NCBI GenBank assembly: GCA_023261815.1
Contig: JALNKA010000011.1
Coordinates: forward strand, 1 to 28,199
Reading direction: 5' to 3'
DNA length: 28,199 nucleotides
Source: Candidatus Wolframiiraptor sinensis
GTDB taxonomy: Archaea; Thermoproteota; Nitrososphaeria_A; Caldarchaeales; Wolframiiraptoraceae
Under the pieces are notes generated by a model that searched no databases, had not been told where the DNA came from, and saw nothing but the letters and a program-made list of their open reading frames with translations. Made by a program: the position numbers and the translations under genes. This document shows, one piece after another, positions 1,798 to 8,894 of this stretch; positions within the stretch are counted from its first letter, which is position 1, and every line of letters begins with the position of its first letter.

Positions 1798-1893
1798 CGG
1801 CAAGGGTTCAATGGCATGCTGATTTTTAGCTTTACAGACTGCTCGGCATTTAAGGTTATGGTTATTAGGAGTAATTTTTACGATTTCCAGGGA

Positions 1894-1921
1894 GCCCCGG
1901 TAGCTCAGCCGGCAGAGCGGC
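1894..1921 (+). pseudogene. 5' fragment of tRNA-Thr (left junction, attL-like)
   Basis: GCCCCGGTAGCTCAGCCGGCAGAGCGGC = acceptor 5' strand + D arm; 26/28 identical to 3229-3256; ends abruptly in TTAAGGCCCC. Confidence 0.9.
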
Positions 1922-2113
1922 TTAAGGCCCCCCTCACTTTAACACCCTAACATTAAACATGTTTATACCAAAACTTTTATGTCCGGGAACTTGAGGAGAA
2001 GTGCGGCGCATGGGGCTTTAAAGCCCGAGCAGTTAGCGACCCGACGTCTTCTGCAACGCTGAGAACAGGGTCCTAGGAAAAGAATTATTAGTTTACATGA
2101 TTATAGAACGATG

Positions 2114-2145
2114 TTTAAAAAGACTATGAGCTAATAGAGGAGGTG
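2114..2145 (+). promoter_or_regulatory. TATA-like box and Shine-Dalgarno site of the element ORF
   Basis: TTTAAAAA at 2114-2121 and GGAGGTG at 2139-2145, upstream of ATG 2148. Confidence 0.5.
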
Positions 2146-2147
2146 CC

Positions 2148-3095
2148 ATGGAGTTGACTGAAAGGAAGATATACTATGTGGATGTAGCTAATGCAGGAAA
2201 GAAGAATAAGTTGCATGCGGTTTTTGATGGAAAGAGGACCTTTAAGGTTAGGAGGTTGATGGAGCTCGAGGATGCTGATGAAATCTACGTTGACATGTTA
2301 TTCCCGGAGAACTACGGTGAGGTCTTAAAGATGCTAGAGAAGGGCATTAAAATCTTTCTGCTGACGGAAACAAAACTCATCAAAAAGCTGAGAGTCCAAA
2401 ACAATGTAAGAAAAACTGATGAAAATGATTCAAAAGTCTTATCACTAATCTCAAAAGAATGCTTCCGAAATGTGAGTGTGGAGGAAATTAGGAGGAGAAT
2501 GGAAATGCAACCATTGATAGCGAAATACGAGGTCTTAACCCGAAGGATTAAAACTCTAAAACAATGGCTTAAAGATGGTCAAACCTCCGAAGAAATAAGA
2601 AAGGAGATCGTGAAAACGTCAAGAGAATTCGAGAAAGAAAGGAGTAAGATTGGCAGAGAGATAATCAGTGCACTCGGCGAGAATTATCGAAAAATTCTGG
2701 AAAAGATAGGGTTGAGGGGTAGCGTTGAGGCAGCCATACTACTAACATACTTGGATCTTAGTCGTGGAATAAATAAGCTGTTGACGTATTGTTGGAGGAG
2801 TAGAAAAGTGAACGAGCATTTATCAAAGTTAGTGTATAGCATTTATCGCCACTATCTAAGGGGAGACGTGGTCCCGGAGGCGTATAGGAAATTCATAGAA
2901 GAATCGAGAGGAAAATTGTCGAAGAGGCAGTTGCTCGTGAGACTCAAGAGAATGGTCATCAAAGATCTTAGAAGAGCATACATCGAACTTTCGGTGAAGT
3001 CGGCATCGCAAATAGGTGCCTATGGGACCGGAGGAAATGAGCCTCAGACAGCAAGAGCGACGGACGCGTCTATAGTTTCTTTGAAAAACCTATAG
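2148..3095 (+). CDS. IS110-family-like (DEDD RuvC + coiled coil + Nop/Tnp-like C-terminus) recombinase/nuclease
   Basis: YYVD(12) strand, IYVD(49), KTDEND (D91, D94; IS110 KTDxxDA motif), helical linker, IGLRGSVEAAILL and KLLTYC..N.HL..LVY resembling the IS110 C-terminal domain; the GLxP..QSG loop is absent. Confidence 0.7.
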   Translation: MELTERKIYYVDVANAGKKNKLHAVFDGKRTFKVRRLMELEDADEIYVDMLFPENYGEVLKMLEKGIKIFLLTETKLIKKLRVQNNVRKTDENDSKVLSLISKECFRNVSVEEIRRRMEMQPLIAKYEVLTRRIKTLKQWLKDGQTSEEIRKEIVKTSREFEKERSKIGREIISALGENYRKILEKIGLRGSVEAAILLTYLDLSRGINKLLTYCWRSRKVNEHLSKLVYSIYRHYLRGDVVPEAYRKFIEESRGKLSKRQLLVRLKRMVIKDLRRAYIELSVKSASQIGAYGTGGNEPQTARATDASIVSLKNL

Positions 3096-3147
3096 ACGCG
3101 CTACAAGGCCGACCTGTCTGGGGGCCGCCTCATACGGTCTCATAGGC
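3018..3147 (+). ncRNA. Putative guide (bridge/seek/tigRNA-like) hairpin RNA
   Basis: Stems 3018-3030/3135-3147, 3037-3041/3129-3133, 3042-3051/3114-3123 and 3065-3075/3090-3100; symmetric 13x13 internal loop whose strands match the tRNA target. Confidence 0.7.
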
Positions 3148-3174
3148 CCTCTCTTTTCTTCTTCCCTTTTCTCT
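3148..3174 (+). terminator. Pyrimidine/U-rich archaeal terminator-like tract
   Basis: CCTCTCTTTTCTTCTTCCCTTTTCTCT directly after the hairpin. Confidence 0.5.
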
Positions 3175-3228
3175 ACATTCCTTTAAAGAGCTAAGGTTAA
3201 TTAGCTTGAGAGTAAAATAGATTTTACA

Positions 3229-3331
3229 GCCCCGGTAGCTCAGCGGGTAGAGCGGCAGCCTTGTAAAGTTTATGTGATCTTTTGTTTTTCAAGAAAGCTG
3301 CAGGCCGCGGGTTCAAAGCCCGCCCGGGGCT
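3229..3331 (+). tRNA. tRNA-Thr(TGT) with a 30-nt intron at 37/38 (3266-3295)
   Basis: GCCCCGG/CCGGGGC acceptor stem, GCTC/GAGC D stem, GCAGC/GCTGC anticodon stem, GCGGG TTCAAAG CCCGC T arm; BHB motif with CTTG/CAAG central helix and TAA and AAA bulges. Confidence 0.93.
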
Positions 3332-6307: not shown

Positions 6308-7174
6308 ATGAATGGATTCGATTTGGGAATCGTCTTCTGGCTCTTCCTCCTATTGCTGATTTTTCTCTGGCCGCAGTATAGGCTTAGGGCTCTTCAGGGC
6401 GCTAGGCTCAGCCTGATCAGGAAGCTCGAGGCGAAGCTCGGATGCAGGGTCATCACGCTCATTCACAGGCAGGAGAGGATAGGGCTCTTCGGGATACCAT
6501 TTTACCGGTACATAGACATAGAAGACTCGGAGCACGTGCTCAGGGCAATCAGGACTACTTCGCCCGACACGCCGATAGCAATCATAATTCATACGCCCGG
6601 CGGCCTGGTCCTCGCGGCAGCCCAGATAGCCCTCGCCCTAAAAGAGCATAAAGCGAAAACGATAGCCATCATCCCGCACTACGCCATGAGCGGTGGAACG
6701 CTCATAGCCCTCGCGGCAGACGAGATCTGGATGGACGAGAACGCAGTCCTCGGCCCAGTTGACCCGCAAATAAGCGACCCGAGGCATGGAGCGATCCCAG
6801 CATCCTCGATCCTGAGAGTCGTGAATGAGAAAGGTAAAGATAAGGTTCGGGAAGAATACTTGTTGCTCGCGGACATCGCGGAGAAGGCGATGAGGCAGAT
6901 GGAGGAGCTCGTCTACAAGCTGTTAAAGGATAAAATGGGAGATAGGGCGAGGGAGCTGGCGAAGATAATGGTTGAGGGTAGATGGACTCATGATTACCCG
7001 ATAACGGTCGAGGAGGCCAGAAGCCTCGGGATACCGGTCAAGACCGAGATACCGGCCGAAGTCTATCAGCTGATGGAGCTCTATCCGCAGCCAGCCGCGC
7101 TAAGGCCGAGCGTCGAGTACGTGCCCGCGCCATACGCTCCGCCCAGGAGCCGTAGGGGCGAGCAGCAGAGGTAG
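6308..7174 (+). CDS. ClpP-class membrane serine protease (SDH_sah/DUF114 family)
   Basis: N-terminal TM, IHTPGGLVLAA, HYAMSGGTLIALAADEI, LGPVDPQ, WTHDYPI. Confidence 0.9.
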   Translation: MNGFDLGIVFWLFLLLLIFLWPQYRLRALQGARLSLIRKLEAKLGCRVITLIHRQERIGLFGIPFYRYIDIEDSEHVLRAIRTTSPDTPIAIIIHTPGGLVLAAAQIALALKEHKAKTIAIIPHYAMSGGTLIALAADEIWMDENAVLGPVDPQISDPRHGAIPASSILRVVNEKGKDKVREEYLLLADIAEKAMRQMEELVYKLLKDKMGDRARELAKIMVEGRWTHDYPITVEEARSLGIPVKTEIPAEVYQLMELYPQPAALRPSVEYVPAPYAPPRSRRGEQQR

Positions 7175-7186
7175 TGGCCGCGGGGT

Positions 7187-8158
7187 GTGCGGGGCTTGAG
7201 GAGGATTGGGATCGTTACGAGCGGCGGCGACGCGCCCGGCATGAACGCGGCGATAAGGGCCATCGCCAGGCTCGCGGCGTGGAGCGGCATGGAGGTCATC
7301 GGGTTCGAGAGGGGCTGGAGCGGCGTGATCAGGAACGAGTATGTATTGCTGGAGCCTAGGGCTGTTAGCGGCATACTCCACCTCGGCGGAACGATATTGA
7401 AGACGAGCAGGTGCCCGGAGTTCAAGACCAGAGAGGGCGTCGAGAAGGCGGCGAGAAGCATAGCCGAAGATGACCTCGATGCCCTGATAGTGATAGGCGG
7501 CGATGGCTCGATACGCGGAGCACATGAGCTGAGCAAGCTCACCGACGCGGCGATAATAGCTCTACCCGCCTCAATAGACAACGATGTATACGGGACGGAT
7601 GAGACGATAGGATTCGACACCGCCGTCAACACGGCTTTGACGGAGATAAACAAGATCAGGGATACCGCGGTATCGCTTGAGAGGACGTTCATAGTGGAGG
7701 TGATGGGAAGGAATAGGGGCTTCCTGGCCTCCGAGATCGGATTAACCGCCGGAGCAGAGGTAATTCTCGTTCCGGAGATACCGTATAACGAGGAGGTGAT
7801 CTTGGAGAGGCTTAGAAGGGATGCAGCCAAGGGCAAGAGATCGAGCATAATAGTTATCGCTGAAGGGGTTGGGAAGACGAGGGAGCTCGCGGAGGCCATA
7901 GAGAGAAAGGTCGGGGTTGAGGTCAGGATAAGTATCCTCGGATATGTTCAGAGGGGCGGGAGCCCGACAGCTAGAAGCAGGCACCTCGCATCAGTCTTCG
8001 CGGAGAAGGCTATAGAGCTGCTGCTCGACGGCGAGAGGAGCAGGGTCGTCGGGATACAGGGTGGGAGAATAACCTCGGTAAGCCTGGCGGAAGCATGCAG
8101 CAATCAGAAGCCGCTCAACCTGGAGATACTGAAACTCGCCGAGAAGCTCGCAATATGA
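7187..8158 (+). CDS. pfkA: ATP-dependent 6-phosphofructokinase (PfkA family)
   Basis: TSGGDAPGMNAAIR, GGTILKTSR, IGGDGS, SIDND, GFDTA, EVMGR, LGYVQRGG. Confidence 0.92.
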   Translation: MRGLRRIGIVTSGGDAPGMNAAIRAIARLAAWSGMEVIGFERGWSGVIRNEYVLLEPRAVSGILHLGGTILKTSRCPEFKTREGVEKAARSIAEDDLDALIVIGGDGSIRGAHELSKLTDAAIIALPASIDNDVYGTDETIGFDTAVNTALTEINKIRDTAVSLERTFIVEVMGRNRGFLASEIGLTAGAEVILVPEIPYNEEVILERLRRDAAKGKRSSIIVIAEGVGKTRELAEAIERKVGVEVRISILGYVQRGGSPTARSRHLASVFAEKAIELLLDGERSRVVGIQGGRITSVSLAEACSNQKPLNLEILKLAEKLAI

Positions 8159-8208
8159 GAGCCCGGAAAAGCGCAATTTCATATTCAACAAACTCTCCAG
8201 CTAATCGA

Positions 8209-8283
8209 GGAGATGATGAGCGCGTCCTTCTCTGAGCATGAGGCGCGATGAAGAGGGGGCGATGGAAGAAGCTGATCCCCCTC
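8209..8283 (+). ncRNA. Candidate box C/D sRNA
   Basis: C box ATGATGA 8213-8219, D' CTGA 8232-8235, C' ATGAAGA 8248-8254, D CTGA 8272-8275, in the gap between convergent genes. Confidence 0.55.
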
Positions 8284-8315
8284 CGATGCGGAGCACATTG
8301 ATTATTTGATCGCTG

Positions 8316-8894
8316 CTACGGCTTCTCTCCTAGGATCTCGTGGGCCTTCGGCCACTCGACATTATAGAGCTCTGGGTTCAGCCTCGGGATGAGCGCCGAT
8401 ACTATCGCCTGCGCGCACAGGTCTATTCTCCTAACGCGGTCTCGCGTCAGGTATCCCACAGCTCCGCCCTTGCGCCCGATCTCCCTGATCCCCGAGATCT
8501 CCTCCATGACCTCCTCAGCCTCCCGAGCCCTTCCACCCAGTATCCTCTCCACGACGATTACCGGAAACTCGAGTGTCATGCTGAACCCGAGAGTAACCCT
8601 CTCCTCGGAGTCGATTATCGCGCACACATGCTGATCGGCGTATCCCGTGATGCTGTGCAGGACCCTCATGAGCCCAGCCTCTATCCCGACTCCGAGATCA
8701 GCATCAGCCTTCCTCAAGGCCTCCCACGCCCTTATGACAGCCCCCCTAATAGTCTCCTCGAAGCCTATGGGCTGCGGCGGAACATCGACCGAGATGGGCG
8801 CGACTTCCACCACGCCGAAGAACTTCTCGAAGCACATTTTCACGGCCTCTATCTTGACCTCGTTCATCGAGCCGACTCCAACACGCATGACCAT
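8316..8894 (-). CDS. yjjX: Inosine/xanthosine triphosphatase (DUF84/YjjX)
   Basis: VGSMNEVKIEAV, QPIG.EET..GA..RA, GVGIEAG, GAVGYLT. Confidence 0.88.
   Translation of the reverse strand: MVMRVGVGSMNEVKIEAVKMCFEKFFGVVEVAPISVDVPPQPIGFEETIRGAVIRAWEALRKADADLGVGIEAGLMRVLHSITGYADQHVCAIIDSEERVTLGFSMTLEFPVIVVERILGGRAREAEEVMEEISGIREIGRKGGAVGYLTRDRVRRIDLCAQAIVSALIPRLNPELYNVEWPKAHEILGEKP

Follow-up and report, generated by a model that had tools for sequence, protein, structure and literature searches.

A candidate RNA-guided, IS110-like element in an archaeal tRNA-Thr gene that stays complete despite the insertion

How can a tRNA gene be split by an insertion and still be present in complete form at the same place? 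The question is raised by a 28,199 nt stretch of DNA (the window) from the archaeon Candidatus Wolframiiraptor sinensis, in which the first 28 nt of a tRNA-Thr gene are followed by 1307 bases (1922-3228) holding a single open reading frame (ORF), and then by a complete tRNA-Thr. Positions given below are window coordinates (1-28,199), features are on the forward strand unless stated otherwise, and the source genome is referred to as G000. The answer we favour, with moderate confidence, is that the insertion is an IS110-like, RNA-guided element, remotely related to IS110/IS1111, that was guided into tRNA-Thr(UGU) by an RNA encoded at its 3' end.

The left copy (1894-1921) consists of positions 1-28 of the native tRNA-Thr(UGU), severed from the remainder of the gene, and in the sequence at the locus no 3' half follows this stub. 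Upstream of it are the native spacer with the promoter of the original tRNA-Thr (1798-1893) and, on the reverse strand, the divergent neighbour tRNA-Pro(UGG) (1722-1797; called by ARAGORN, 59 bits in Rfam), which marks the locus as conserved. The inserted DNA is made up of a non-coding left end (1922-2147), the ORF (2148-3095, 315 amino acids) and a right end (3147-3228). In the sequence, the right end begins with a tract rich in C and T, of a kind that relatives also keep 3' of the RNA, and then becomes AT-rich, with TATA-like boxes abutting the rebuilt tRNA. The complete tRNA-Thr(UGU) occupies 3229-3331. It is a tRNA in Rfam (57.9 bits, E-value 2.3e-11, 32-nt insert), and ARAGORN -i calls it as tRNA-Thr(tgt) with a 30-nt intron (about 3266-3295), which default ARAGORN misses. 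The rebuilt tRNA-Thr is thus complete despite the insertion. Its first 28 nt (3229-3256, D-loop AGCGGGUA) are an element-side copy with two departures from the native 28 nt, at tRNA positions 17 and 20, where the left copy has C and C (1910/1913) and the right copy G and T (3245/3248). Taken as a direct repeat, the two copies span 29 nt (1893-1921 and 3228-3256) and are 27/29 identical (93 %), and a local alignment of the flanks scores 24, the maximum in 20 shuffles being 11. The GC content is 0.39-0.44 over 1801-3000, compared with 0.52-0.61 upstream and approximately 0.54 in the genome. The original prediction, made from the letters of the window, had described the 28-nt fragment, the low-GC DNA of about 1.3 kb with one ORF, the complete tRNA-Thr on the right and the two D-loop differences, and all of these were confirmed.

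Which of the two copies is native was established from relatives. Two genomes of the same genus (contigs G023:C16 and G022:C48) contain the same divergent tRNA-Pro(UGG)/tRNA-Thr(UGU) pair without an insertion, as had been predicted for the empty site. Their Pro/Thr spacers are 79-82 % identical to that of the window, the homology to the empty site ends at 1921|1922, and the first 28 nt of their uninterrupted tRNA-Thr genes are identical to the left fragment (28/28). Because the uninterrupted genes match the left fragment, the left stub is the front of the original gene and the working tRNA has a different front. An inverted repeat (1838-1853/2018-2033, 14/16) between the native promoter region and the left-end segment is, by estimate for 1.8 kb, within chance.

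The window stretch is also present in hot-spring metagenome runs from 10 studies. One contig of run X2 spans 1814-3317 with 0 differences, the left junction is crossed by contigs of runs X1, X4 and X7, and the right junction also by contigs of X1 and X7. These junction-spanning contigs come from four runs in four studies, one of which may be the source of the window itself. The assembly of run X7 contains a flank unitig (1740-1909, 0 differences) with a depth of 192.7, which branches, one path leading into the element (depth 37.5) and the other from 1921 through 8 other letters to 3295 (depth 155.1), and the two depths sum to that of the flank. The second path appears to be an empty allele, with the native D-loop, G29 and no intron, that makes up about four-fifths of the population; this is good evidence rather than proof, as the short side of the joint is 28 letters long. 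The element allele has an A at tRNA position 29 (window 3257) and the 30-nt intron, whereas the apparent empty allele has G29 and is intronless. The joint of the empty allele had 0 matches in a scan of metagenome contigs. Among the differences listed between X7 and the window, the tail (3147-3228) is the most variable part, with 9 differences and a 14-nt gap; 8 differences are in the ORF upstream of the RNA described below and none are inside that RNA.

A second insertion with the same anatomy was found in G000. The profile of the protein family gave 8 matches in this genome, of which three are full length, namely the window copy, a copy on contig C17 and a divergent copy on C12 that has no tRNA nearby. 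The C17 element (28375-29999, joined to C27 1-127 by a 127-nt overlap; L002) encodes a protein 39 % identical to the product of the window ORF, and has a tRNA-Leu stub on one side and a complete tRNA-Leu(CAA) on the other. Orthologues of this Leu locus were identified in G023, G022 and G034 (tRNA 93-94 % identical, downstream gene 77-79 %), and the first 29 nt of the stub are identical to the native tRNA-Leu(CAA) there. This also rules out that the stub belongs to the missing tRNA-Leu(UAA). In the working tRNA-Leu, the D-arm is a different one, its D-stem shows a compensatory swap, and the sequence after it is native. Only about 2 nt are shared at the crossover. The Thr and Leu elements split their tRNAs at the same position, where the D-arm meets the anticodon stem.

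How the element might find this position is suggested by a structured RNA encoded at its 3' end. An alignment of the sequences downstream of the copies revealed long nested stems that begin in the last codons. In the window, the predicted RNA (3019-3146) has a minimum free energy of -62.9 kcal/mol (z-score -6.66), and 0/200 shuffles folded as well. Its helices are P1 (3019-3034/3128-3146), P2 (3042-3051/3114-3123) and P3 (3065-3075/3090-3100), and the stop codon of the ORF (3093-3095) is inside P3. In the common plan, P1 is separated from P2 by an asymmetric bulge, and P2 is followed by a large internal loop, which in the window is formed by 3052-3064 and 3101-3113, and by the P3 hairpin. This architecture covaries in 26 relatives: in the two outer helices of these 26 sequences 95.5 % of the cells are paired and 17 of the 19 pairs have changed on both sides, with 0/500 shuffles equalling this and slid controls pairing at 22-45 %. 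Folded singly, five relatives gave z-scores of -5.3 to -9.5 and L004 gave -3.65. A manual count of 35 G.U cells versus 13 A.C cells fits an RNA of the same strand as the ORF. Rfam has no family for the 3' RNA, and also missed multi-intron tRNAs near relatives. A covariance model built from relatives (R1) retrieved only the C17 copy in G000 and not the window RNA. An inverted repeat (3074-3089/3284-3299, 13/16) between the loop of P3 and the end of the tRNA intron is, by the same estimate, within chance.

The two strands of the internal loop are candidate guides for the two halves of the target. On the 3' strand (3101-3113), CUACAAGGCCG (3101-3111) gives a 10-nt exact antisense match to positions 28-37 of the native, empty-type tRNA (P=0.00075), and against the rebuilt tRNA, which has A29, the antisense match is 8 nt. 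On the 5' strand (3052-3064), AGAGCG (3054-3059) is the sense sequence of target positions 21-26. The two loop matches of the window meet at tRNA position 28, the end of the stub. In the C17 element, the left match is 9 nt (P=0.003) and the right match 10 nt (P=0.0011), with a 2-nt overlap at the junction, and jointly they were equalled in 0/20,000 shuffles. In the IS621 bridge RNA's target-binding loop, the 5' side pairs with the bottom-left strand and the 3' side with the top-right strand, with an overlap at the core, as described in PMC11208160. The predicted loop-target geometry of the window and C17 elements agrees with this arrangement. A cis-encoded guide had been proposed for the locus. 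A structured RNA that matches both target halves in the IS621 geometry supports the proposal, but this RNA is at the 3' end and runs over the stop codon, and is not the hairpin at the left end that had been taken for it. The 'large hairpin' of the non-coding left part (1922-2147), where the feature first described is located, did not hold up (z-score -1.25, 20/200 shuffles equally good), and 3096-3228 folded alone was also not significant. The 3' RNA of the C17 element is, in addition, antisense over 8 nt to the bases with which the element itself begins, in a segment adjoining the right-target match.

The complementarity extends to the family. The interior of each RNA was compared with the flanks of its own locus and with those of other loci. 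Nine of the 37 loci (L001, L003, L004, L013, L014, L015, L018, L019 and L027) have no pattern-recognisable RNA; L001 and L004 were added to this test by hand, and L030 was dropped because its RNA span was cut incompletely by the pattern. An antisense match of at least 10 nt to the own right flank was found at 10 of 29 loci, compared with 3.3 % of 812 cross-locus pairs (binomial P=1.9e-8), and the own left flank was matched in the same sense, again over at least 10 nt, at 3 of 17, compared with 2.9 % (P=0.013). The reversed-sense controls were not enriched (left flank 1/17 versus 5.0 %; right flank 2/29 versus 2.6 %). The matches abut independently known junctions in L009, L022 (left) and L030 (right).

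A possible source of the replacement 5' part is suggested by its distribution. The element-side 28 nt of the Thr copy were found, exactly, as the native 5' part of tRNA-Thr in 9 other genomes, of which 7 are in genus g4, where 7 of the 8 genomes have it. The closest relative of the ORF (50 % identity) is also found in genus g4, at a locus of 38 % GC. As g4 has both the exact 28 nt and the closest ORF relative, these data fit a Thr arm brought along by the element out of a host resembling g4.

Together, these observations suggest the following course of events. The element would correspond to 1922-3256, and would have entered tRNA-Thr(UGU) between tRNA positions 28 and 29. On the left side, the native promoter and positions 1-28 would remain as a dead stub. 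At the right end, an outward-facing promoter-like stretch and the element's own copy of positions 1-28 would be joined to the native remainder of the gene, and because of this joining the cell would keep a working tRNA-Thr. The target would be chosen by the approximately 128-nt RNA encoded at the 3' end (3019-3146), with the loop strand in the sense of the left half pairing with the bottom strand and the strand antisense to the right half pairing with the top strand. The protein and the 3' RNA would most likely recognize about 17-18 bp of the target on both strands, with strand exchange at 28/29. The ORF product would bind the RNA and recombine the target with a circular copy of the element, the right end of which finishes in the promoter-like stretch and tRNA positions 1-28, and the right-end arm would travel with the element.

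The ORF product is predicted to have a DEDD/RuvC-like N-terminal domain, a coiled middle part and a helical C-terminal domain, and may be a remote relative of the IS110 and Tas proteins. In an alignment of 13 family proteins (A1), residues D12, E45, D49, K89 and D94 are invariant and D91 is found in at least 90 %, giving a DEDD pattern; in the window protein the last part of this reads K89-T-D91-E-N-D94. The NCBIfam model for IS110 (NF033542) touches 6 of the 13 members at E-values up to 0.1 (best 4.5e-5), below the curated cut-off, and its weak match to the window protein covers residues 60-101. Among neighbours found with a protein language model, clusters of archaeal hypothetical proteins come first, followed by clusters that partly carry IS110 domains. 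In sequence, the window protein is IS110-like in its DEDD motif and resembles IS110 only weakly overall.

Several results weigh against this reading and concern the protein, the guide, the circle and the arm. No serine is invariant or near-invariant in A1, the C-terminal half included, and a catalytic serine is required for the chemistry of IS110 (10.1101/2024.06.21.599552). No Pfam family matched the window protein, and Pfam was silent for all 13 members except for one match to PF01548 (DEDD; E-value 0.059). NF033542 gives the window protein 15.3 bits against a cut-off of 140. A six-frame search with PF02371 was negative in all 35 family genomes (0/35), some of which have many copies of the element. 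An hhalign comparison with a canonical archaeal IS110 fragment gave a probability of 1.5 %, and in that alignment, with the same low probability, the IS110 stretch 'GLvPserS' is opposite 'GLtpnkN' in the family. The claim of an IS110-like protein is thus borne out for the DEDD motif, but every curated IS110 model failed and the serine is not conserved.

For the guide, the left-half match of the window, AGAGCG, is exact over only 6 nt (P=0.13), or at 7 of 8 positions by eye. Many of the family-wide matches are 200-500 nt beyond the RNA, with no independent junction there, and independent junction data are confined to L001, L002, L009, L022 (left) and L030 (right). As the loci are paralogous to one another, the binomial probability treats them as more independent than they are. 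There are also two arrangements, with the left-type guide on the 5' loop strand in the window and C17 elements and on the 3' strand in L004, L009 and L022, although both keep the same strand logic, left half sense and right half antisense. Candidate donor matches of 7-8 nt to the start of the left end (GGGGGCC in the window and AAUCCUGC in C17) are not significant (P=0.14-0.25). The predicted circle junction was sought and had no counterpart either in the contigs of the four runs or in metagenome contigs (0 matches), where contigs cannot reveal rare forms. Finally, the element-side Leu arm was found in 0 of 75 other genomes. For this arm, an own donor arm is indistinguishable from later divergence, and that divergence was perhaps selected for escape from the element's own guide. 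The idea that the element carries its own tRNA 5' end as a donor arm is supported by the Thr arm, which deviates from the native copy and is of the g4 type, but not by the Leu arm, which has no counterpart in the 75 genomes.

The missing serine keeps alive the explanation that survives best after the one we favour, though we consider it unlikely. The protein would be a serine-less, RuvC-Nop-like, RNA-guided nuclease, comparable to TasR or TnpB, that cuts the empty tRNA allele, and homing would follow, as repair from a chromosome that bears the element would copy it into the cut, with neither a circle nor a recombinase. On this reading, the mismatches in the rebuilt tRNA (A29 and the changes in the D-arm) would shield it from the element's own guide. 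In keeping with this, the only match of A1 to a sequence with a solved structure is to TasH of the TIGR-Tas systems (E-value 0.0022, query residues 130-261, in the C-terminal half). There is one guide-bearing loop and not two, filled and empty alleles appear to occur together in run X7, the guide fits the empty-type allele over 10 nt and the rebuilt tRNA over 8 nt, and the rebuilt Leu D-arm is altered within the segment matched by the left guide. Homing, however, cannot account for repeated entry into new sites, and this is what at least 10 insertion sites, each with a loop that fits its own flank, demand. Nor does it explain the duplicated 5' part and the g4-type Thr arm. The many guide-matched sites argue against nuclease plus repair as the sole mode of movement.

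An ordinary insertion, in which a 28-29-nt target was duplicated, an outward promoter drives the right copy, the copies diverged later and the loop matches play no part in targeting, is a good deal less probable. Other copies do have flanking repeats of variable length (2-29 nt), the Leu right arm is without a native counterpart in the 75 genomes, and the sequences preceding the two copies show a weak similarity, with 1.4 % and 2.4 % of 500 shuffles scoring as high. After a duplication, drift would be expected in the stubs, which are unconstrained, but the stubs are identical to the relatives (28/28 and 29/29) and it is the functional copies that have changed, including the compensatory D-stem swap, the opposite of drift. 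The Thr arm is, moreover, the native sequence of g4, and complementarity of the RNAs to their own flanks is enriched when the controls are not.

We see very little probability in a small integrative element that depends for its movement on a tyrosine or serine integrase gene at another place, with the 28 nt as the core of an attachment (att) site and the ORF and RNA otherwise employed. tRNA genes are classical att sites, and replacement of a tRNA part is a classical strategy of such elements. However, the single 315-amino-acid ORF matched no integrase family, the sequence shared at the crossover of the Leu element is only about 2 nt long, and the copies outside tRNA genes show repeats of 2-9 nt at unrelated sites. 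An assembly artefact, which the 33 contigs of G000 and their 127-nt end overlaps might suggest, or a split or giant-intron tRNA gene, is next to impossible, as both junctions are covered by independently assembled contigs from the four runs, the tRNA on the right is complete by itself, the stub has no 3' half and the gene is intact in relatives. In that assembly, 14 pairs of contig ends have exact 127-nt overlaps, so that further joining is possible, and one family copy spans the C14_R/C18_L overlap. An ARAGORN call of a tRNA-Glu with a 1791-nt intron at 6680-8557 is a false positive, this stretch being ordinary coding sequence.

The wider family is mobile but narrowly distributed. A homologous-protein search returned only 2 near-identical proteins and a search for related loci across genome contigs returned nothing. 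With the 13-member profile, 292 representatives were found at E≤0.001 and 58 at E≤1e-30 among 1.84 billion proteins. Among 301 genomes sampled from the phylum, it is confined to three families (f1-f3) of one archaeal order, where 22 of 40 genomes have it, compared with 0 of 260 elsewhere. Copies are present in 13 of the 35 genomes of the host family. The largest number of matches in a single genome is 21, and many of these are broken or lie where a contig ends. Copies in the same genome are 70-80 % identical over about 1.0-1.25 kb. For seven copies in G023 (L009, L019, L025 and L027-L030), G000 has the contiguous empty site. These sites are the ends of protein genes, intergenic DNA, a position 4 nt upstream of tRNA-Gly and the inside of the intron of tRNA-Gln(CUG), and the imperfect flanking repeats at the seven copies are 0-24 nt long.

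The original prediction had asked whether homologues are found in tRNAs with duplicated 5' fragments, and the family turned out not to be tRNA-specific. A tRNA or tRNA part on the same strand within 500 nt downstream was found at five clear loci (L001, L002, L011, L012 and L027) and the doubtful L024, of 37, all six in genus g1; the chance expectation, by our arithmetic, is about 1 % per locus. The remaining copies are at the ends of protein genes or in intergenic DNA.

Some individual sites have features of their own. L027 (G023:C1:61000-64900) is an insertion of about 2.5 kb inside a non-canonical intron (position 29/30) of tRNA-Gln(CUG) and contains a copy of the element and an inverted tRNA-Gln; the uninterrupted gene is G000:C18:29391-29517. 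The elements and non-canonical tRNA introns share tRNA positions in this order. L025 (G023:C5; empty site G000:C10:152615-152623) is separated by 4 nt from tRNA-Gly(CCC), which it precedes on the other strand, and its left end provides a TATA-like box at about -30, replacing the displaced native box. L019 and L030 of G023, for which the empty sites are G000:C10:164432-164455 and 126200-126219, are inside protein-coding genes, within the final 64 nt and the initial 43 nt, and their imperfect repeats are 24 and 20 nt long. One of the two genes gains a new C-terminus with its stop codon from the right end of the copy, and the other gains a new start that is followed by a similar N-terminus. Where G023 has the full copy L022, G000 (C33:50160-50767) has a 606-nt stretch with a C/T-rich tract like that of the element right end, which is probably a decayed or ORF-less remnant of an element.

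A broader proposal, which we put forward as a tentative and still rather doubtful possibility, is that the family represents a serine-less, catalytically intact, mobile RuvC-Nop branch, so far missing, between TIGR-Tas, IS110 and Nop5, with a single-loop guide that addresses two strands. By aiming at a safe harbour, tRNA positions about 21-37, where essential tRNA genes are most isoacceptor-specific, and bringing a promoter and a 5' part mismatched to the guide, the elements would leave a rebuilt tRNA that works and can no longer be targeted. The non-canonical tRNA introns at positions 26-31 in this order may, in addition, be seeded or exploited by these elements.

IS110-type RNA-guided recombinases were described only in 2024 and are under development as genome-writing tools. 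The present family would add a compact protein (about 290-315 amino acids) from thermophilic archaea and an RNA of about 125-150 nt that are outside all curated IS110 models. Together with the apparent lack of the serine nucleophile, this would make it necessary to rethink either the chemistry or the boundary of the family. If our reading is correct, this locus is a natural case of an RNA-guided element that enters an essential gene harmlessly by means of a replacement part that it carries, and run X7 offers a natural polymorphic population in which movement can be studied directly. In the literature available to us, in part as excerpts, we found no report of an IS110-like element that rebuilds a tRNA, or of this family, and supplements may list overlapping archaeal IS110-like clades.

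Among known systems, the IS110/IS1111 elements, which use a bridge RNA or seekRNA (IS621, ISEc11), share with the window family a single ORF with a DEDD RuvC-like N-terminus (K-T/S-D-x-x-D), the lack of terminal inverted repeats and a specific site for each copy. They are also alike in that, according to PMC11187229, IS1111 elements have a structured non-coding RNA downstream of the gene, and that of the two apparently duplicated copies one is part of the element. The pairing of an internal loop with the bottom-left and top-right target strands, overlapping at the crossover, is a further likeness (PMC11208160). In contrast to IS110/IS1111, the window family fails all curated models, has no conserved serine, has an RNA that overlaps the stop codon and includes one guide loop instead of two, has an element-side arm of up to 28-29 nt with a promoter that rebuilds an essential gene, and is limited to one archaeal order.

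The TIGR-Tas proteins TasR and TasH have an N-terminal RuvC and a Nop-type RNA-binding region without the IS110 serine, an architecture that the window protein may share, and likewise a two-segment guide that addresses opposite DNA strands (PMC12045711). Pfam Nop (PF01798) did not match the family proteins. There is, however, no tandem guide array in or beside the window element, where the nearest row of Tandem Repeats Finder is at 7431. The window locus also differs in being mobile and multi-copy with guides that match their own insertion sites, and the sequence match is weak (the E-value of 0.0022 given above).

Islands and viruses with tyrosine integrases likewise enter tRNA genes with a carried replacement part, so that the tRNA survives. 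Archaeal elements of the SSV and pNOB8 type integrate into tRNA genes by means of tyrosine integrases. Unlike these islands, the window element has no integrase, replaces the 5' part and promoter and not the usual 3' part, has a relative with a crossover as short as about 2 nt (Leu), and is only about 1.3 kb long.

Archaeal Nop5, of the box C/D ribonucleoproteins, resembles the window protein in its RuvC-like N-terminus, coiled coil and helical RNA-binding C-terminus, and apparently in having no serine hairpin (10.1101/2024.06.21.599552). The window family differs from Nop5 in keeping the DEDD residues, and the profile link to the Nop5 proteins of its own host genomes is suggestive only (probability 31 %, E-value 5e-4, N-terminal domains). 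A separate Nop5 is present in 13 of 13 genomes searched. It has been proposed that Nop5 descends from an IS110-like ancestor, and the window family is a candidate for the archaeal IS110-like lineage proposed as this ancestry (10.1101/2024.06.21.599552).

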